NCBI GenBank assembly: GCA_045656645.1
Contig: JAZORN010000060.1
Span: 1-62,166, forward strand
Length of the DNA stretch: 62,166 nt
Direction: 5' to 3'
Source of the DNA: Clostridia bacterium
Lineage (GTDB): Bacteria; Bacillota; Clostridia; UMGS1883
Position numbers and translations under genes: made by a program. Below the pieces are notes generated by a model that worked only from the letters and a program-made list of their open reading frames with translations, ran no database searches and was not told where the DNA came from. Positions 1 to 59,019 of the stretch are shown here, piece by piece (positions within the stretch are counted from its first letter, which is position 1; every line of letters starts with the position of its first letter).

Positions 1-200
1 ACGTCAGTATTATTCTTGAATTTTCTTTGTCTTATAACAAAATTTCTTGTTTTTAAACTCTTCGACCTTAAACGCAGGAAAATTTGATATAATTTTTATG
101 CGGAGGACGAAGATAGGCTGACGCCTTTCAAGGACGACAAATAAAAAGAATAAAAATTTAACAAGTTTAAGGCATATTGGGATGGGCTCCCTTATGCCTA
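1..200 (-). mobile_element. 277-bp Y-shaped element, subfamily A, truncated by window edge
   Basis: Reverse complement of 49969-50168; ends CATATTGGGATGGGCTCCCTTATGCCTA. Confidence 0.85.
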
Positions 201-4475: not shown

Positions 4476-5798
4476 TTAAAAAGGGAAACGCATCTTTTTA
4501 AGCTTTTTCGGGTCAGAAAACATTTTCATCATTTTCTGCATTTGTTCGAACTGCTTCAAAAACAAATTTACATCCTGAACGCCAAGACCGCATCCGTTTG
4601 CAATTCTTTTTCTGCGGCTGCCGTTTATGATTTCGGGATTTTCACGTTCCTTTTTCGTCATAGAACAGATTATTGCCTCTGTCCTCGTAAACTGCTTGTC
4701 ATCAAGCTTAACCCCTTTAAGCTTTGACCCCATTCCGGGAATCATACCTATTATACTTTCGAGCGAGCCCATATTTTTCATCTGATGAAGCTGCTCAAGA
4801 TAATCATTAAGGTCAAATTTCTGCGCACGGATTTTCTTTTCAAGCTCAATGGCTTTCTTTTCATCAAAAGCCTCCTGCGCTTTATCAATGAGTGAAAGCA
4901 TATCACCCATACCAAGTATTCTTGATGCCATACGGTCAGGATAAAACGGCTCAAGGTCAGTAAGCTTTTCGCCCATACCGACAAACTTTATATTCTTACC
5001 CGTTGTTGCCCTTACGCTGAGTGCCGCACCGCCTCGTGTATCTCCGTCAAGCTTTGTAAGAATTATTCCGTCTATTCCAAGCTGCTCGTCAAAGCTTGCT
5101 GCAACATTTACCGCATCCTGACCCGTCATAGAGTCAACTACCAGAAGTATTTCTGTAGGATGCACACTCGCCTTTATTTGTCTCAGTTCGTCCATCAGCG
5201 CCTCATCCACGTGAAGACGGCCTGCCGTATCTATAATAACTGTATCGTAAAGAGATGTGTCGCACCCCTTTAGCGCATCAAGTGCAATTTTTACTGCGTC
5301 CTTCGTTTCAAAATCAGCATAAACCGAAAGACCAAGCTGCTCACCCACTACCGAAAGCTGCTTAATCGCCGCAGGACGGTAAACGTCACAACCAACAAGA
5401 AGAGGCCTTTTCCCCTGCTTTTTAAGCACTCCGCCAAGCTTTGCGGCAGTTGTTGTCTTACCTGCACCCTGAAGACCAACAAGCATATAAACCGTCGGTG
5501 CCTTAGAGGAAACTGCAAGCTTTGAATTTGCACCGCCCATAAGCCAGGTAAGCTCATCACGTACTATTTTTATTATCTGTTGACCGGGGGTAAGGCTCTC
5601 AAGAACCTCACTGCCCGTTGCTTTTTCAAAAACACGCTTCTCAAACTCTTTAACAACCTTATATCCTACGTCTGCTTCGAGCAAGGCAAAGCGGACTTCA
5701 CGCATTGCAGCTTTTATATCCTTTTCACTTACAACGCCCTGCCCTTTAAGCTTTTTAAAAGTTTCCTGAAGCTTTTCACCTAAAGTTTCAAAAGCCAT
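4476..5798 (-). CDS. ffh: signal recognition particle protein
   Basis: GLQGAGKTT, DTAGR, TKLDGD, Met-rich M domain. Confidence 0.98.
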   Translation of the reverse strand: MAFETLGEKLQETFKKLKGQGVVSEKDIKAAMREVRFALLEADVGYKVVKEFEKRVFEKATGSEVLESLTPGQQIIKIVRDELTWLMGGANSKLAVSSKAPTVYMLVGLQGAGKTTTAAKLGGVLKKQGKRPLLVGCDVYRPAAIKQLSVVGEQLGLSVYADFETKDAVKIALDALKGCDTSLYDTVIIDTAGRLHVDEALMDELRQIKASVHPTEILLVVDSMTGQDAVNVAASFDEQLGIDGIILTKLDGDTRGGAALSVRATTGKNIKFVGMGEKLTDLEPFYPDRMASRILGMGDMLSLIDKAQEAFDEKKAIELEKKIRAQKFDLNDYLEQLHQMKNMGSLESIIGMIPGMGSKLKGVKLDDKQFTRTEAIICSMTKKERENPEIINGSRRKRIANGCGLGVQDVNLFLKQFEQMQKMMKMFSDPKKLKKMRFPF

Positions 5799-8642: not shown

Positions 8643-8718
8643 TGGTGAGCCATCGGAGATTCGAACCCCGGACAACTTGATTAAAAGTCAAGTGCTCTGC
8701 CGACTGAGCTAATGGCCC
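8643..8718 (-). tRNA. tRNA-Lys(TTT)
   Basis: Cloverleaf, anticodon loop CTTTTAA, encoded CCA. Confidence 0.97.
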
Positions 8719-8723
8719 GTATG

Positions 8724-8800
8724 TGGCTGGGCTGGCAGGACTTGAACCTGCGCGTACCAGAGTCAAAGTCTGGTGCCTTTACCGACTTGGCTACAGCCCA
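8724..8800 (-). tRNA. tRNA-Gln(TTG)
   Basis: Cloverleaf, loop CTTTGAC, CCA. Confidence 0.97.
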
Positions 8801-8835
8801 ACATTATAATGCTGAGTGCAACTCAGGTTGGAAAG

Positions 8836-8913
8836 TGGGGTGGATAGAGGGACTCGAACCCTCGGCCTCTAGAGCCACAATCTAGCGCTCTAACCAACTG
8901 AGCTATACCCACC
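8836..8913 (-). tRNA. tRNA-His(GTG)
   Basis: Cloverleaf, loop TTGTGGC, G-1/C73, CCA. Confidence 0.97.
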
Positions 8914-8919
8914 ATATTT

Positions 8920-8996
<77 letters not shown>

Positions 8997-9024
8997 ATAT
9001 TTTGCCGTATAATAGGCAAAAAAG

Positions 9025-9098
9025 TGGAGCGGGTGATGGGAATCGAACCCACCTATCCAGCTTGGAAGGCTGGTGTTCTACCAATGAACTACACCCGC
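9025..9098 (-). tRNA. tRNA-Gly(TCC)
   Basis: Cloverleaf, loop CTTCCAA, CCA. Confidence 0.97.
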
Positions 9099-18038: not shown

Positions 18039-18315
18039 TAACCGAAACGAAGTAATCCAAACTCTGTTTTTTGCTTTCTGTTTTCCGCCATTGCTGCGTT
18101 AAAAGCCTTGCATATACGACAGTATATGCTGCAATTTTGCCTTGCACTGACGAAAAACCGTGTGCAAAAAATTCTACGAACCCAAAATGTCTCAAAATTG
18201 AGATTTTTCAAGGCGGCAGGACGAAGGAATACTGTTTCGTATTTCAATACCGACAACGAAGAAAAAGCCGATTTTCAGCCATTTTGGGCAGGTTCGGATT
18301 GCTTCGTTTCGGTTA
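18039..18315 (-). mobile_element. 277-bp Y-shaped element, subfamily D, inserted in the azlC 3' end
   Basis: TA-ACCGAAACGAAGTAATCC...GGATTGCTTCGTTTCGGT-TA; about 20 substitutions versus the inverted copy at 48620-48896. Confidence 0.93.
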
Positions 18316-19000
18316 TAGGGAATAAAAACGCCGCTGCAGCACTCACTGTAAGGGTAATGATAATGATCGACCAACCACTTGAAATACTTTTAAGCATCGG
18401 TGCATAATAAAAAATAACGCTCATCAAAACTGCCATAACGGAAGTTATCATCACATTCTTATTCTCACGTGCAGGGGGAATTACTATCGCAATAAACATT
18501 GCATAAAGCGCAATCCCCATTGACGAGGATAATACGGGCGGCATAAAAGAGGTCAAAACAGCACCCGTAAGAGTGCCGAGTGTCCACCCTATTGGTGGCG
18601 TAAGTACAAGCCCCGCCATATATGCGCTTGTAATTGTCCCTTTGTGCTTTATCGATACCGCAAACACCTCATCAGTTATTGCAAAAGAGAAAATCATTCT
18701 TTTCCATATGCTCATTTTTTCATCTACACGTTGCGATAAGGAAAGCGACATAAGAAAATACCTGAGGTTTATTATTAAGGTTGTCAGCGCAAGCTCTGTA
18801 AGTGCACCAAGTACAAGCAGTATATTAACGCCTGCAAACTGGCCTGCACTTGTAAGATTTGTCATCGAAATAAGCACTGCCGACCATATTGGAAGTCCTG
18901 AAAGTGCCACCGTAAGACCAAATGCCATAGAAACTGAAAAATATCCGAGTGCTATCGGTACACCGTCTTTAACTCCCTGTAAAAATTCCTGTTTTTTCAT
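18275..19000 (-). CDS. azlC: AzlC branched-chain amino acid exporter permease
   Basis: PIALGY, AGQF, INLRY, ITDEVFA; last 12 residues and stop come from the element. Confidence 0.92.
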   Translation of the reverse strand: MKKQEFLQGVKDGVPIALGYFSVSMAFGLTVALSGLPIWSAVLISMTNLTSAGQFAGVNILLVLGALTELALTTLIINLRYFLMSLSLSQRVDEKMSIWKRMIFSFAITDEVFAVSIKHKGTITSAYMAGLVLTPPIGWTLGTLTGAVLTSFMPPVLSSSMGIALYAMFIAIVIPPARENKNVMITSVMAVLMSVIFYYAPMLKSISSGWSIIIITLTVSAAAAFLFPITETKQSEPAQNG

Positions 19001-24865: not shown

Positions 24866-24892
24866 AAATCTTCCTCCTACCTATATAAAAAA

Positions 24893-25347
24893 GTATTTTT
24901 AATACATCAACCCCTACCCCACTCTTTGGGGTATTTATGCCATTTTGAGCGCCAAAATGGCGAAAAGCGTCGGGGGATTTCGATTTCCCCCGAGCCCCTT
25001 TGAAACGACCTCGCAGGGGCGCTTTCAATTTCGGGCGTGCCACAGAATTAGTAATTGGTCTTTGTTTATAAATTTGCTTTTCTTTCTTACGCCGTCCGCA
25101 TTGAAATACTCATTTTCAAGATGGACTAAAAATTGCCCGTCAGCAGCGGAAATTGATACGAGCAATTTTTACCCAAGAAAGCAAAGCAAATTTACAAACC
25201 CTGAGAGTGTGGAAGTTAGTTAGTTTTATATCAAACTAACTGCAGCGATAAAGCTGCGTTTTTCCGTGGTTTTGGTCTTTTTGACACCAAAAGGACATAT
25301 TGATACGTGCTCCACGTATGTTTCTTAAGCTTTGCTTATTTTTACAC
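24893..25347 (+). mobile_element. family C structured element, internally deleted copy
   Basis: Near-identical to 58345-59019 but lacks about 58725-58942. Confidence 0.88.
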
Positions 25348-46508: not shown

Positions 46509-48602
46509 CTATCTTACTCCAAAAAGAAGCTCACTGTAGTCAGGATACGGCCACATCGTACGGTCGCAAATAACTTCAAGCTCGTCTGAAACTGTGCGAA
46601 GCTCCTCCATATTCTTTATAACCGTATTGCAGTAGTAATCTGCCTCCTCCTGCGCATCGGTTATCTTCTCTGCCTCTTTAAGTGCATTTTCAAGACTTCT
46701 CGTTTTTTCAAGCATTTCGTCAAGAAGTGCTGATGCCTTTTCAATAATGCTTTCCTCGTAAGCGCCCTTAATGCCCTTCACTGCGCTACGCTTTGCAAGG
46801 AGTGTATTACTCAGGTTTCCTATGAACTCACTGACTGCGGGCATAATGTCTTTATTTGACATTTCAGCCATTGTCAGTGCCTCTATATTAAGTATCTTGC
46901 GATAGCTTTCGAGCATTACCTCAAGTCTGGAGCGCATCTCCACCTCTGAATACACACGGTGTGTTTCGAAAAGCTCTATATTTTTCTTTGCTACAAGATG
47001 CTTTAAAGCCTCAGGCGTTGTCTTAAGATTTAAAAGCCCTCTCTTCTCCGCCTCGCAAATCCATTTATCGTCATATCCGTTACCGTTAAAGATAATATGC
47101 TTATGTGCCTTTATAGTCTTTTTGATAAGATTATGAAGCGACGCCTCAAAATCAGGTGCACCCTCTATCTCGTCTGCAAACTGACGAAGGCTTTCAGCAA
47201 CTGCCGTATTAAGTACAACATTGACATCTGAAACAGATGCAGATGAGCCGAGCATTCTGAATTCAAACTTATTTCCCGTAAATGCAAACGGGCTTGTCCT
47301 GTTACGGTCTGTTGTATCCTTGGGAAATCTCGGTATTACGTGAACGCCGATTTTCATCTGTACCTTTTCACGTCCGTCATAGGATTTTCCCGTTTCAATC
47401 GCCTCTAAAATTTCACTTAATTCTTCTCCGAGGAAAATTGAAACAACTGCGGGCGGTGCCTCATTTGCACCGAGGCGGTGGTCATTTCCTGCACTTGCCA
47501 CGCTGATACGAAGTAAATCCTGATATTCGTCAACCGCCTTGATAACGGCACAAAGGAACATCAGAAACTGTGCGTTCTCATATGGTGTTTCACCCGGGTC
47601 AAGGAGGTTTTTACCGTTACTTGTTACCATTGACCAGTTGTTATGCTTGCCACTGCCGTTTACACCCTCAAACGGTTTTTCGTGCAAAAGACATACAAGA
47701 GAATGTCTGCGTGCAACCTTCTGCATCATTTCCATTGTGAGCTGATTGTGGTCAGCGGAAATATTTGTTGTTGTAAATATAGGTGCAAGCTCGTGCTGAG
47801 CGGGTGCAACCTCGTTATGCTCTGTCTTGGCAAGTATGCCGAGCTTCCAGAGTTCTTCATCAAGGTCACGCATAAACTCTGCCACCCTCGGCTTTATACT
47901 GCCGTAATAGTGGTCATCAAGCTCCTGTCCCTTTGGCGGTTTTGCACCAAAAAGCGTTCTGCCCGTAAAAATAAGGTCAGGACGTTTATTATAAATTTCT
48001 TCATCTACAAGGAAATATTCCTGTTCAGGTCCTACAGTTGTCTTAACACTCTTTACATTGTCATTGCCAAAGAGCCTGAGGATTCGCATAGCCTGCTTAT
48101 CAATAGCCTCCATCGAGCGCAGAAGCGGTGTCTTCTGGTCGAGTGCCTCACCCCCGTAGGAGCAGAATGCCGTAGGAATACAAAGCGTTTTATCCTTTAT
48201 AAACGCATAGCTTGTCGGGTCCCACGCAGTATATCCGCGTGCCTCAAACGTAGCACGAAGTCCGCCTGACGGAAAGCTTGACGCATCAGACTCACCCTGA
48301 ACAAGCTCTTTACCCGAAAACTCCATTATAACATTGGCATCATCTGTAGGCGAAATAAAGCTGTCGTGCTTTTCTGCGGTAATCCCTGTCATAGGCTGGA
48401 ACCAGTGTGTATAATGTGTTGCACCGTTTTCAATTGCCCAATCCTTCATTGCATTGGCAACAACGTTTGCAACATTAATATCAAGACGTTTTCCATCCTT
48501 TATGGTTTTCTGCATTGCCTTATATATATCCTTCGGAAGTCTTTCCTTCATAACGGTTGCATTAAAAACCATACTTGCAAATATTTCGGTTACATTGCTC
48601 AT
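46509..48602 (-). CDS. glnA: glutamine synthetase type III
   Basis: HWFQP, DASSFPSGG, HNEVAP, NGSGKH, DRNRTSPF; true ATG at 48602 after AAAGGGGAG. Confidence 0.96.
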   Translation of the reverse strand: MSNVTEIFASMVFNATVMKERLPKDIYKAMQKTIKDGKRLDINVANVVANAMKDWAIENGATHYTHWFQPMTGITAEKHDSFISPTDDANVIMEFSGKELVQGESDASSFPSGGLRATFEARGYTAWDPTSYAFIKDKTLCIPTAFCSYGGEALDQKTPLLRSMEAIDKQAMRILRLFGNDNVKSVKTTVGPEQEYFLVDEEIYNKRPDLIFTGRTLFGAKPPKGQELDDHYYGSIKPRVAEFMRDLDEELWKLGILAKTEHNEVAPAQHELAPIFTTTNISADHNQLTMEMMQKVARRHSLVCLLHEKPFEGVNGSGKHNNWSMVTSNGKNLLDPGETPYENAQFLMFLCAVIKAVDEYQDLLRISVASAGNDHRLGANEAPPAVVSIFLGEELSEILEAIETGKSYDGREKVQMKIGVHVIPRFPKDTTDRNRTSPFAFTGNKFEFRMLGSSASVSDVNVVLNTAVAESLRQFADEIEGAPDFEASLHNLIKKTIKAHKHIIFNGNGYDDKWICEAEKRGLLNLKTTPEALKHLVAKKNIELFETHRVYSEVEMRSRLEVMLESYRKILNIEALTMAEMSNKDIMPAVSEFIGNLSNTLLAKRSAVKGIKGAYEESIIEKASALLDEMLEKTRSLENALKEAEKITDAQEEADYYCNTVIKNMEELRTVSDELEVICDRTMWPYPDYSELLFGVR

Positions 48603-48619
48603 CGTACTACTCCCCTTTA

Positions 48620-48896
48620 CAACCGAAACGAAATAATCTAAACCTGCCCAAAATGGCTGAAAATCGGCTTTTTCTTCGTTGTCGGTCTTGAAATACGAAA
48701 CAGTATTCCTTCGCCCTGCCGCCTTGAAAAATCTCAATTTTGAGACATTTTGGGTTTATGAAATTTTTTGCGCGCTGTTTTTCGTCAGTACAAGGCAAAA
48801 ACGCAGTATATACTGTCGTATATGCAAGGCTTTTAACGCAGTAATGGCGGAAAACAGAAAGCAAAAAACAGAGTTTGGATTACTTCGTTTCGGTTG
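48620..48896 (+). mobile_element. 277-bp Y-shaped element, subfamily D, in the glnA 5' UTR
   Basis: CA-ACCGAAACGAA...TTCGTTTCGGT-TG; inverted copy of 18039-18315. Confidence 0.93.
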
Positions 48897-48936
48897 AAAA
48901 ACAAGTGCCGAAGAATCCCTCGGCACCTTCTACATT

Positions 48937-48965
48937 AATATACCATTTTATAAAATTTTTGTCAA
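48937..48965 (-). promoter_or_regulatory. sigma-A promoter of glnA
   Basis: TTGACA-17-TATATT with TGn. Confidence 0.75.
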
Positions 48966-48970
48966 CCATT

Positions 48971-49852
48971 TTACGCACGCGGGTGCGCTTTTTTATAAAT
49001 TTTCTTGATATTATTTCTGAGCACCTGATTATATATCCTCGTCGTGACAACATCTGTGTGCCCGAGCATCTGTGAAACGGCATTTATATCTGCACCGTTT
49101 TCAAGAAGATGCAGTGCAAAGCAATTCCTAAGTGTCTGTGCATTAATTTCAGTTTTAATACCTGCACTTTGTGCATAGCTTCTGAGAATTTTCCAGAACC
49201 CCTGCCTTGTAAGAGCCGTGCCTGAGCAGTTTACAAAAAGATTTTTTACTTTGTTTTCGCCGAGCATAAGTGGGCGTGCCTTTTTAATATATACCTCGAG
49301 CGCCTCCGTTGCCGCCTTACCGATAGGGATGTAGCGCTGATTTTTTCCTGACGAACAGCTCAGCATACCGCCACGCACATCAACGTCCCCGAGTGCAAGG
49401 TTTATAAGCTCTGACACTTTTATACCCGTAGCATATAAAAGCTCCAGCATTGCTCTGTCACGTATTCCTTTCAGGTCAGTTGTTTTAGGCTGTTTTAAAA
49501 GCTTTAATATTTCACGGTGGCTTATCGCCTCGGGAAGCTTTTTCTCAACACGTGGCACCTCCACCCCGTAAACAGGATTTGTTTTAACTCTGCCCTCTAG
49601 CAGCATAAAATGATAAAATTTACGCAGTGCTGCCGCATTGCGTGAAATGGTGGAGTTTGCCCTGCCGCTTTCCTTTAAATCCTCTATATAGGCATCAACC
49701 GCTTCTTTTTTAACGGTTAGTGCATTTTTTATGTTGTGCGATTTGAGGTATCCGAAAAACGCCTCCAAATCACGAAGATACGAAGAAAGTGTATTTTCAG
49801 AAAGCTTTTGCCCTCTGAGGCTTTCCTCATACTGTGCCACTAACTCTCTCAT
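48971..49852 (-). CDS. xerD: XerD/RipX-like tyrosine recombinase with atypical active site
   Basis: RDRAMLELLYATG, LTRQGFWK, LGH..TTRIY, HPRA end; follows spoIIM; start may be 49861. Confidence 0.9.
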   Translation of the reverse strand: MRELVAQYEESLRGQKLSENTLSSYLRDLEAFFGYLKSHNIKNALTVKKEAVDAYIEDLKESGRANSTISRNAAALRKFYHFMLLEGRVKTNPVYGVEVPRVEKKLPEAISHREILKLLKQPKTTDLKGIRDRAMLELLYATGIKVSELINLALGDVDVRGGMLSCSSGKNQRYIPIGKAATEALEVYIKKARPLMLGENKVKNLFVNCSGTALTRQGFWKILRSYAQSAGIKTEINAQTLRNCFALHLLENGADINAVSQMLGHTDVVTTRIYNQVLRNNIKKIYKKAHPRA

Positions 49853-49968
49853 TTTATCCAACCTGCCATATTAGTTTACATAATGTAGGAATTATTTTAC
49901 ACCCTTCCGTTTAAATTGTATATAACCAAATTGCACATATTTTCCATTTATTTTCAGTAGAAAATGCT

Positions 49969-50245
49969 TAAGCCTAGGAGAGCCCAGCCCCATATGCCTT
50001 AAACTTGTTAAATTTGTATGTTTTCAATTTGTCGGTTTTGTAGGGCGTCAGCCCAACTTCAACCTTCGCATTAAAACCATAGCAAATTTTCCTGCGTTTA
50101 AGGTCGAAGAGCTTAAAAACAAGAATTTTTGCTATAAGACAAAGAAAATTCAAAAATAATACTGACGTATATTTGCAGAATTTTCTGCAGTATTATACGA
50201 AAATTCTGTTTTTAACCCATATTGGGCTGGGCTATCCTAGGCTTA
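49969..50245 (+). mobile_element. 277-bp Y-shaped element, subfamily A, inserted in the spoIIM 3' end
   Basis: 28-bp IR TAAGCCTAGGAGAGCCCAGCCCCATATG / CATATTGGGCTGGGCTATCCTAGGCTTA (2 mismatches); second copy at 1-200. Confidence 0.92.
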
Positions 50246-57030: not shown

Positions 57031-58353
57031 ATGCAGACAGAGTATCCACCTCTTCGTGGGGGCGGTTTTATTATATCACCACAAAACTCAGGCACTATTC
57101 CAAAGGCAAAGCCCTTTTCCCCACCCCGAAAAAAAAGAGTAGTAAAAATAAAGGAGCTTATCTTTCCCGTTTTAAGTGACTACTGCTCTTACGCAGAAGG
57201 TATGACAAGCCGCATTATTTCAAAGCTCCTTTCTTCACTTATCGCACTGTGCTCAGTAGCAGTATTTTTTAAATATTTTACTTTCGGAACAATAATCTGT
57301 GTTGACGGAAACTATGTTGCCACCGCAAATTCTGACAAGAGCTTTTACAGTGCTTATTCTGCCGCCGATACAATAGCAGAGCAAAACGGAATTTATGATT
57401 TTAAACCTGATTTTTCGCTGACACCGACACTTACACTTAAAAACAATATCGAGAGCACACAAACAGTCCGTGACGAGCTTCTTCTATCCTCACCGCATTT
57501 TGTGCGTGGATGTGTTCTTTATTCAAAAAACACTCCCGTTTTCAGTGCCGAAAGCAAGAGCATTGCAAAGGAAGTTGTTGACGATTATATAAAAGCTTAT
57601 TCAATGAACGGCACTGTCAGCCTCAGCAGTGATATCAGTTTTAAGGAATGTGTTATTTCAAGAGATGAAATTTCAGGCAAAGAAGAATGCAGCGACCTTC
57701 TTTTTCAAAAAGATGCCATTGCCGTTACAAGTGTTGTAAATAAGGCTGTGGAAAAAGAAATTCCTTTTGAAACAAAAACACAAAATGACGCAAATCTCTA
57801 CATAGGCGAAAGTGTTACAGTTACCGAAGGTGTTCCGGGAAAATCAGCAATAACAGAAGAAACTGTTTATCATAACGGCACACAAAAATCAAGCCGAATT
57901 CTCACGGAAAATTTAATTCTTCCGCCCGTGACAAAGGTTGTCCGTGTAGGTACAAAGGAAAAGGAGGTTCTTAAAACGGGCGTTCTGTATCCTCTTGAGG
58001 GGGTTATTTCCTCCCCTTTTGGGTCCCGTTGGGGAAAAATGCACGAGGGGCTTGACATTGCAGTAAGCGAGGGTACACCCGTGCTTGCCGCAGAATGCGG
58101 CACTGTATCATACGTCAGTGAAAACGCAGGCGGTTACGGAAAATTTATCCGCATTGACCACGGCTACGGCGTAGAAACCGCGTACGCACATCTTAGCAAA
58201 ATTGAAGTGAGTGTAGGGCAAAGCGTAAACGCAAATACACGTATAGCACTAAGCGGCAATACGGGAAGGTCAACAGGACCGCATCTGCATTTTGAAATAA
58301 CACAAAATGATACACCGCTTGACCCTATAAAATATCTAAAAAAACGTTTTTAA
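57031..58353 (+). CDS. G5 and M23 domain peptidoglycan peptidase
   Basis: G5 (VTEGVPG..VVRVGT), HEGLD, STGPHLHFE; AGGAGG RBS. Confidence 0.9.
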   Translation: MQTEYPPLRGGGFIISPQNSGTIPKAKPFSPPRKKRVVKIKELIFPVLSDYCSYAEGMTSRIISKLLSSLIALCSVAVFFKYFTFGTIICVDGNYVATANSDKSFYSAYSAADTIAEQNGIYDFKPDFSLTPTLTLKNNIESTQTVRDELLLSSPHFVRGCVLYSKNTPVFSAESKSIAKEVVDDYIKAYSMNGTVSLSSDISFKECVISRDEISGKEECSDLLFQKDAIAVTSVVNKAVEKEIPFETKTQNDANLYIGESVTVTEGVPGKSAITEETVYHNGTQKSSRILTENLILPPVTKVVRVGTKEKEVLKTGVLYPLEGVISSPFGSRWGKMHEGLDIAVSEGTPVLAAECGTVSYVSENAGGYGKFIRIDHGYGVETAYAHLSKIEVSVGQSVNANTRIALSGNTGRSTGPHLHFEITQNDTPLDPIKYLKKRF

Positions 58354-59019
58354 TATATCAACCCCTGCCCCAATCTTTGGGGATATTATATGCCATTTTG
58401 AGCGCCAAAATGGCGAAAAGCGTCGGGGGATTTCGATTTCCCCCGAACCCCTTTGAAACGACCTCGCAGGGGCGATTTCAATTTCGGGCGTGCCACAGAA
58501 TTAATAATTGGTCTTTGTTTATAAATTTGCTTTACTTTCATTGCGCCGTCCGCATTGAAAAACTCATTTTCAAGATGGACTAAAAATTGCCCGTCAGCAG
58601 CGGAAATTGATACGGGCAATTTTTACCCAAGAAAGCAAAGCAACTTTACAAACCCTGAGAGTGTGGAAGTTAGTTAGTTTTATATCAAACTAACCATAGC
58701 CATAAAGCTGCGTTTTTCCGTGTTTTTTGTCGACTACCGAGAAATTGCGAGCATCATTTTCCTTTGCTGGCTCGCAATTTCAGCCGTCAGAGGAAACTAA
58801 GTGTTTCCTTTTTGTAGGCGGCGGTTCAAAGGCGGAAAGCACGGAAAAACAATACCCACACTGTATAAATGATATATCGTCCATTATTTTCTGCGCCCCT
58901 GCGAGGTCGTTTTGGGGGCGTGGGGGAATCGAAACCCCCACGTTTTTGGTCCTTTTGACACCAAAAGGACATATTGCCTAGCGCTCCGCTCATTTTTTAA
59001 GCATTGCTTTTTCTTACGC
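58345..59019 (+). mobile_element. family C ~680-bp multi-hairpin element, full copy
   Basis: Second copy at 24893-25347; perfect 19-bp long-range IR 58456-58474 / 58894-58912. Confidence 0.88.

Follow-up and report, generated by a model that had tools for sequence, protein, structure and literature searches.

A family of ~277-bp elements in gut Clostridia that keeps its fold, length and inner motifs while its terminal sequences vary

How can two repeats with different terminal sequences share the same length to the nucleotide and carry their internal motifs at the same positions? The question is raised by a contig of a Clostridia bacterium of the lineage UMGS1883 (JAZORN010000060.1, contig C60 of the source genome G000), the whole of which, 62,166 bp, is here called the window. 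It holds two types of repeat, D and A. Full-length D copies of 277 bp lie at 48620-48896 (+ strand, 258.4 bits with the covariance model R1 introduced below) and 18039-18315 (-, 267.3 bits), a full-length A copy of 277 bp at 49969-50245 (+, 245.3 bits), and a partial A-type copy, matched by R1 and truncated by the contig start, at 1-200 (-). A repeat finder reported the two D copies (18040-18317 and 48618-48895) as 93% complementary and the partial copy as 86% complementary to the A copy. An earlier note on this DNA had given both types as exactly 277 bp long, had placed three internal motifs at 0-based offsets 59/60, 190/190 and 218/218, and had quoted arm sequences of both; lengths and offsets were reproduced and the arm sequences were found in the copies. 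The two types belong, as diverged subfamilies, to a single family of ~277-bp non-coding elements, and this family is mobile. The source genome (2.14 Mb in 109 contigs, 39.4% G+C, 85% complete) is, like most of the genomes compared here, an incomplete metagenome bin.

The termini of A and D had been considered unrelated in the earlier note. They proved to be homologous but diverged, and are linked by intermediate and mosaic subfamilies. A global alignment of A and D gives 51% identity (143/281 columns) and a score of -9, about 6 standard deviations above that of shuffled sequences (-57.5 +/- 7.9). Iterative nhmmer searches grew from 24 to 62 and then 79 matches when started from D, and from 45 to 82 and then 96 when started from A; seeded with D or with A, they ended on the identical 59 loci. 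The alignment of 34 full-length copies from the source genome resolves at least five subfamilies (D, E, A1, A2 and H), and the H copies are mosaics in which an A-like arm P2 is combined with a D-like arm P3. The joint covariance model of A and D that the earlier note had proposed as a check works: R1, built from 33 source-genome copies (275 positions, 68 pairs), recovers 35 full-length copies from every subfamily in the source genome at 198-270 bits, together with four rearranged copies and further partial ones. The full-length copies of this genome measure 275-281 bp. Element copies break metagenome assemblies: in this genome fourteen contig ends stop within a copy, and a further contig terminates precisely where a copy does.

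What the subfamilies share is a branched fold, built as a nested palindrome. An outer stem P1 of ~23 bp closes a three-way junction from which two hairpin arms, P2 and P3, extend for ~100 nt each, reproducing in A and D the Y shape described earlier. In the consensus structure of the D copy at 48620-48896 (+), the 5' strand of P1 at 48621-48643 pairs with the 3' strand at 48873-48895, the long hairpin P2 spans 48646-48755 and exposes an unpaired conserved TTGTCG at 48678-48683, and the long hairpin P3 spans 48768-48864 with a conserved tip, ATAC-N4/5-GTAT, at ~48806-48825. In the A copy (+) the corresponding parts are P1 at 49970-49993 with 50221-50244, P2 at 49996-50104 and P3 at 50116-50213. 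Folded as RNA, D reaches -101.1 kcal/mol (z = -8.8) and A -104.3 kcal/mol (z = -11.8), and none of 200 shuffles folded as well as either; folded as DNA, z was -7.7 for D (+ strand) and -12.3 for A (- strand). Arm P2 can also take up additional sequence: the copies at C106:2977-3310 and C78 ~5030-5097 of the source genome carry the same hairpin-rich insert of ~57 nt within it, and P2-arm inserts occur in copies of other species as well (loci L117, L123 and L139).

Covariation of this fold is strong in both structural alignments, the first comprising the 33 source-genome copies and the second 77 copies of other species. RNAalifold assigned 68 pairs to the first alignment, 45 of them with compensated double changes. 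In that alignment 93.8% of cells pair as against 74.7% after shuffling, and the covariation score of 0.541 compares with 0.205 for shuffled alignments (0/500 reach it) and 0.05-0.12 when the pairing partners are slid. The other-species copies behave alike, with 93.1% of cells pairing versus 76.1% after shuffling, a score of 0.415 versus 0.131 (0/500) and 0.04-0.105 with partners slid, and double changes in 53 of the 68 pairs. Within clusters of at least 86% identity (93 copies), 94 pair-keeping double changes were counted where chance would give ~5.5; 57 of these are shared and 37 are private to one copy, and 129 pair-breaking single changes stand uncorrected in the same clusters. The claim of the earlier note that A and D form one family keeping fold and length over stem sequence is thus upheld.

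The variation is concentrated at the ends. In the terminal helix all nine pairs show double changes among the 77 other-species copies, with up to five pair types per position, and the outermost 7-12 bp are nearly copy-specific yet complementary. Conserved within arm P2 are TTGTCG and, at its base, GCC/GGT; P3 keeps its ATAC..GTAT tip, and P1 has a TCGAAC/GTTCGA box on the inner half. Several of the unpaired motifs are conserved class-wide. Variable ends around conserved inner motifs are the reverse of what a transposase-bound inverted repeat would display.

A further observation concerns the ends of some A-type copies of other species (L110, L111, L133, L135 and L150), which resemble a tRNA acceptor strand and T-arm in that a GC stem closes a TTCGACT-like 7-nt loop; at L133 the element abuts a genuine tRNA gene. 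An origin of these ends from tRNA was not adopted, since ARAGORN detected none and Rfam matched the tmRNA T-arm only weakly (E 0.11-0.17).

The mobility of the family is seen at orthologous sites, whose comparison had been suggested in the earlier note and yielded sites devoid of a full-length element both between species and between strains. At ten sites holding 11 source-genome copies, no full-length copy is present in the genomes of three related species, G001, G009 and G023, where these could be aligned; the D copy at 18039-18315 is among those missing in G001. Four of these "empty" sites keep element-end remnants of 9-24 nt, and in two of the four the remnant is from another subfamily than the copy now in the source genome, indicating that sites are reused or converted. 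The two neighbouring copies of the window have different histories. Metagenome contigs of the same species (runs X1 and X5, ~99% identical) skip 48620-48895, a stretch of 276 nt, and no letter is shared at the joint; this clean absence marks D as recently inserted and as polymorphic in the species. For A, contigs from X1 and X17 skip 49973-50235 between two CCTAGG hexamers of the outer stem, leaving a 14-bp palindrome, and G001 has a different 24-nt remnant at the A-copy site. A is therefore an old copy, in the course of loss by deletion between short repeats at the hairpin base. Stretches of the window lacking contig cover in these runs did not count as evidence, and one close relative with 93% amino-acid identity, found when strain-level empty sites were sought, was left out of the comparison.

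The junctions are rich in TA. TA..TA flanks are found in 55 of 93 copies, flanks are AT-rich, and where two copies adjoin they have one TA in common. Comparison between species shows a net gain of 273-276 bp, 275 bp at two sites, accompanied by small changes of the target. In the only within-species pair of filled and empty sites the insert is 276 bp long, duplicates no letter and ends in the non-canonical CA..TG. The possibility that the outer stem was a host palindrome or terminator before insertion was discarded, the empty sites being without the terminal sequences.

The family is widespread. In a class sample of 150 Clostridia genomes from 107 genera, R1 found it in 32 genomes and 20 genera, usually in several copies per genome, and the full-length matches are mostly 274-280 bp long. 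Within the genus, D matched 21 of 24 other genomes, and in a second family of the order 6 of 15; A matched 46 of 87 genomes of the order, with a patchy distribution (0/11 in one sister genus and 5/10 in another). When species-representative genomes were scanned for an exact pattern, more than 106 stretches came back, every one from an uncultured bin of gut Clostridia; the labels of these bins were Clostridia, Oscillospiraceae, Congzhengia, Ruminococcus or Eubacteriales. Copies from other families are 82-87% identical to source-genome copies. G023 holds a D copy with 96% identity, compared with 68-76% for the flanking DNA and 75% for the XerD protein, and the partial copy at 1-200 matches one in G012, another species of the same genus, with 97.5% identity over 200 nt. 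This high identity suggests exchange between species. A phage or plasmid vector was considered and dropped, as a pattern search of IMG/VR and a blastn search of phage and plasmid collections with the A copy found nothing similar. Rfam at gathering thresholds gave only five tRNAs in the window and none on the element, and at E <= 5 the element received one chance-level microRNA match only; six other loci gave only the weak tmRNA T-arm matches mentioned above. No description of the 277-bp family was found in the literature outside supplements, which may list repeat families, nor in the accessible portions of PMC11602168 and PMC5581495.

The earlier note had proposed that the element acts through a folded single-stranded DNA or RNA structure. 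Folding is symmetric between the strands, the mean difference being -0.04 kcal/mol with the + strand favoured in 17 of 34 copies and G-U pairs numbering 190 versus 162. In 17/34 copies one end lies no more than 35 nt from a start codon with its ribosome-binding site, a proximity found at 12.0% of random intergenic TA sites (binomial p ~7e-8 under a rough null). These 17 copies are oriented with the gene in nine cases and against it in eight, and the gene-sense strand is the more stable one in six. Relative to local GC skew, element orientation splits 16 against 12. The lack of strand bias favours a constraint at the DNA level over one at the RNA level, and none of these observations indicates selection on a single transcript. 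Folded DNA of either strand, a cruciform or a templated process would each give such a symmetric constraint. Hence the RNA half of the proposal was not supported, and recognition of folded DNA stays with us as an inference.

Copies that lie in leaders should nevertheless be transcribed. The D copy at 48620-48896 sits in the 5' leader of a type III glutamine synthetase gene (46509-48602, -), between the ribosome-binding site and a strong promoter-like site (TTGACA-17-TATATT, 48965->48937, - strand). In the D copy at 18039-18315 the 3' end of the element is 17 nt from a start codon with a preceding ribosome-binding site. No sigma-70-like promoter was detected within the D or A copies of the window, so leader copies must be co-transcribed with the downstream gene; in one contig of an RNA library the glutamine synthetase start runs on into the first 20 nt of D, though this evidence is weak. 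Two observations touch these leaders. A GC-rich hairpin with a T-run after it at 48903-48928 (-), part of the glutamine synthetase leader and downstream of its promoter-like site, is kept in G001 and G009, both of which are without the D insertion, and could be a leader stabiliser or attenuator. At L150 6232-6598, a match of 63.4 bits resembling the cspA thermoregulator (gathering score 78) overlaps the element start, which suggests insertion into the leader of a cold-shock gene.

Our overall reading, to which we assign a probability of roughly 0.6, is that these copies constitute one family of ~277-bp non-autonomous mobile DNA, in which fold, length and motifs are kept and movement is brought about in trans. 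The mobilising protein would be encoded away from the elements, and would read folded DNA, a hairpin or cruciform, together with the conserved motifs and not the terminal sequence. Stem sequences drift by paired changes, and only lineages that keep the fold would continue to spread. Copies that happen to land between a promoter and a ribosome-binding site would be transcribed as a structured 5' leader. One may speculate further that what the enzyme recognises is a three-way DNA junction whose arms have set lengths, together with a few loop motifs and regardless of the termini, that it is possibly a protein not now classed as a transposase, and that the elements move unhindered among gut Clostridia families and come to rest in 5' leaders; this bolder version is possible, but we consider it doubtful.

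Several points weigh against the reading of a trans-mobilised family. That an enzyme reads folded DNA is something we infer, no mobilising enzyme having been identified. The second alignment was fitted to the structure of the model itself, which favours the fold, and covariation counts are raised by shared descent. Paired changes could partly arise by mutation, through template switching in quasi-palindromes and without selection. The identity between species could reflect very strong constraint instead of exchange. The junction evidence is mixed, with TA..TA in 55/93 copies against a CA..TG insert that duplicates no letter. A missing transposase proves little in incomplete bins, and the null for proximity to gene starts is rough in that genes were approximated by long open frames.

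The mutational origin of the paired changes can be taken further. By this account they are a by-product of template switching or intramolecular repair, which copies one arm onto the other, so that self-complementarity would persist in any long nested palindrome. The strand-symmetric folding would agree with it, as would the 37 of 94 double changes that are private to one copy. Losses between short hairpin-base repeats, CCTAGG in X1 and X17 and the remnants in G001 and G009, also speak for it, and such deletions establish that the palindromes do interact with replication. It leaves unexplained, however, the unpaired motifs that are conserved class-wide, the length of ~275-280 bp and the cross-family identity of 82-87%. 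Moreover, 129 pair-breaking single changes persist, and the two strands of P1 are ~230 nt apart. As a full explanation we find it unlikely.

The trans-mobilised reading requires a mobiliser, and here the earlier note, which had left the factor unnamed, is borne out: no tested transposase family tracks the element, and clustering of the neighbour proteins over 80 loci gave no recurrent gene, the commonest cluster occurring at 5/80. A REPIN- or PATE-like element could be moved as single-stranded DNA by a hairpin-recognising HUH transposase of the Y1 type, either a REP-associated tyrosine transposase (RAYT) or TnpA of IS200/IS605. REPINs likewise show compensatory changes and kept hairpin capacity (PMC3116915), and an insertion without duplication, as observed within the species, fits this enzyme class. 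Among the 39 genomes of the genus sample, 26 have Y1_Tnp, the long RAYT-like form included, and a long Y1_Tnp (259 aa) scores highest with the NCBIfam model for REP-associated tyrosine transposases, reaching 69 bits where the cut-off is 80. Yet Y1_Tnp, found in 20/32 element carriers and 72/119 other genomes, shows no association with the element. It has no match in the source genome or in five carriers that are at least 96% complete (G121, G156, G168, G174 and G186). The element was within the fetched stretch at only 2 of 20 long-Y1 loci, IS200-like loci have no sequence in common with it, and the split of 16 versus 12 relative to GC skew is no orientation bias. We consider movement by such an enzyme quite unlikely. 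The long Y1_Tnp open frames themselves, of 245-326 aa, are present in about half of the genus genomes and mostly single-copy (L215 2712-3491 of G023, and L216-L234).

An ordinary MITE (miniature inverted-repeat transposable element) of the IS630/Tc1-mariner type, similar to RUP and Correia, would have its ends bound by a DDE transposase and its TA target duplicated, and the ends of each subfamily would have co-evolved with a parent insertion sequence (IS) of its own. The TA..TA flanks of 55/93 copies, the single TA shared by adjacent copies, the net gain of 275 bp at two sites and the AT-rich flanks are in its favour. Against this, PF13358 (the IS630-type DDE_3 domain) has no match in the source genome and occurs in 1 of 39 genus genomes, 14 of the 150 class genomes and 2 of the 32 carriers in that sample, so that IS630-type genes are nearly absent from carriers; no IS630-type parent, whose matching ends would by the earlier note have refuted its proposal, was found. 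The termini vary almost copy by copy, in dozens of variants, while the inner motifs are conserved, and the within-species insertion lacks a duplication. PF13586 and PF04754 have no match in the source genome, and the transposable elements that it does hold have unrelated ends. The single match to PF01609 belongs to an IS1182-like element with unrelated 12-nt ends. A parent of this DDE type is very unlikely. As for these other elements, the IS1182-like transposase gene (C72:12328-13803; 491 aa, DDE_Tnp_1) is bounded by 12-nt terminal inverted repeats which recur at several contig ends, showing the element to be multi-copy, and C26 begins with a fragment of an IS256-like element.

Integration of a circular intermediate by a tyrosine or serine recombinase, with crossover at a TA in the palindrome that the joined ends form and with pseudo-sites upstream of ribosome-binding sites, is a poor candidate in our estimation. 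It would account for TA at both junctions without clear duplication and for tandem copies sharing one TA, and towards their ends the elements have purine-rich boxes similar to ribosome-binding sites, near which 17/34 copies lie. The candidate binding arms are hypervariable, however, and no end-to-end junction was seen in metagenome contigs, which could easily miss one. The window does contain a XerD-like tyrosine recombinase gene (48971-49861, -) between D and A and outside the element, but its product scores 311.5 bits with TIGR02225 recomb_XerD compared with 120.3 bits for the integron-integrase model, and xerD is single-copy in 35 of 39 genus genomes. At 29 xerD loci of other species none has a full-length element alongside and one (G053) has a short remnant, and the X1 contig keeps xerD with D and most of A gone. 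XerD was accordingly rejected as mobiliser: it is a single-copy housekeeping gene, unlinked to the elements elsewhere, and its position next to D and A is coincidental. Finally, a structured RNA, leader or small RNA, kept by the host in many copies for regulation or mRNA stability, and so not mainly selfish, is the least probable of all, for although half of the copies are in 5' leaders, the two window copies have no internal sigma-70-like promoter and there is the weak glutamine synthetase-D RNA contig, the orientation of the leader copies is 9 versus 8, the sense strand is the stabler in only 6/17, orthologous sites of sister species lack the element and Rfam has no family for the window copies at E <= 5.

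The window has other features of note. A different repeat family of ~400 bp has copies at 24882-25323 and 58333-58997 that are 94% identical to each other; other contigs carry at least seven more, several of which lie at a contig end. Five tRNA genes are clustered at 8646-9098 (-). Between 9596 and 12067 lie three diverged direct repeats, ~1 kb apart and 64-78% identical over 41-74 nt, which look like three tandem paralogous genes. Elsewhere in the source genome, an insertion of ~124 nt (C103:33018-33141; L071 4019-4142) is missing at the orthologous sites of G001 and G009 and represents a third small repeat family with at least five further copies in that genome.

The 277-bp family is carried by about one fifth of the sampled Clostridia genomes and offers a starting point in the search for a new mobilising enzyme or mode of DNA recognition. 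Its insertion can place a very stable 277-nt structure right upstream of the ribosome-binding sites of many housekeeping genes such as that for type III glutamine synthetase, and leader copies may alter expression between strains. With their near-identity across species, the copies could serve as markers of DNA exchange in gut communities.

How does the family relate to systems already described? The IS630-related MITEs RUP and Correia/NEMIS, and also ERIC, are small repeats with terminal inverted repeats, TA junctions, stable folds and sites in transcribed leaders. RUP, Correia/NEMIS and ERIC conserve their terminal sequence. In the 277-bp family, in contrast to RUP and Correia, the termini are the most variable part and IS630-type genes are nearly absent. 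ERIC differs from the Clostridia element in size and host range, and the description of the latter as ERIC-like in the earlier note was not sustained, since D gave no blastn match at E <= 0.01 to 20,395 E. coli records. Integron attC sites, the established precedent for such a DNA site, are recognised through a folded single strand and not through their sequence, and are short single hairpins. They sit in cassette arrays beside an integron integrase, whereas copies of the 277-bp element are dispersed and the neighbouring recombinase is XerD. Membership among the PATEs of IS200/IS605, which have subterminal hairpins but no terminal inverted repeats, insert with a strand bias and depend on a Y1 transposase, is not indicated either: the termini are inverted repeats, orientation shows no GC-skew bias and no sequence is shared with IS200-like loci.

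REPINs are much shorter than 277 bp. They flank single-copy RAYT genes and are single hairpins with conserved terminal REPs and a variable spacer, while the present family forms a three-way junction with variable termini. Compensatory evolution of the hairpins is common to both, but a flanking, co-occurring RAYT is not (2/20 loci). In PMC3116915, REPINs are described as undergoing compensatory changes that keep the hairpin, length and hairpin capacity being what matters, and they resemble the present elements in being non-autonomous, multi-copy, intergenic and palindromic and in that copies insert side by side. Another near relative in concept is bcr1 of the Bacillus cereus group, which is ~155 bp long, has 5-bp direct repeats on its flanks and is described at the RNA level. 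Like the present family it is an intergenic repeat that is mobile in Firmicutes, and in bcr1 too compensatory changes keep a cruciform-like structure (PMC3184786). The 277-bp element differs in its length and in being without clear duplication or strand bias. Set beside REPINs and bcr1, the novelty of the 277-bp family lies in its large size, its branched three-way junction and its ends, which are conserved least of all; among structured non-autonomous mobile DNA it stands as a new MITE/REPIN-like family with class-wide distribution.

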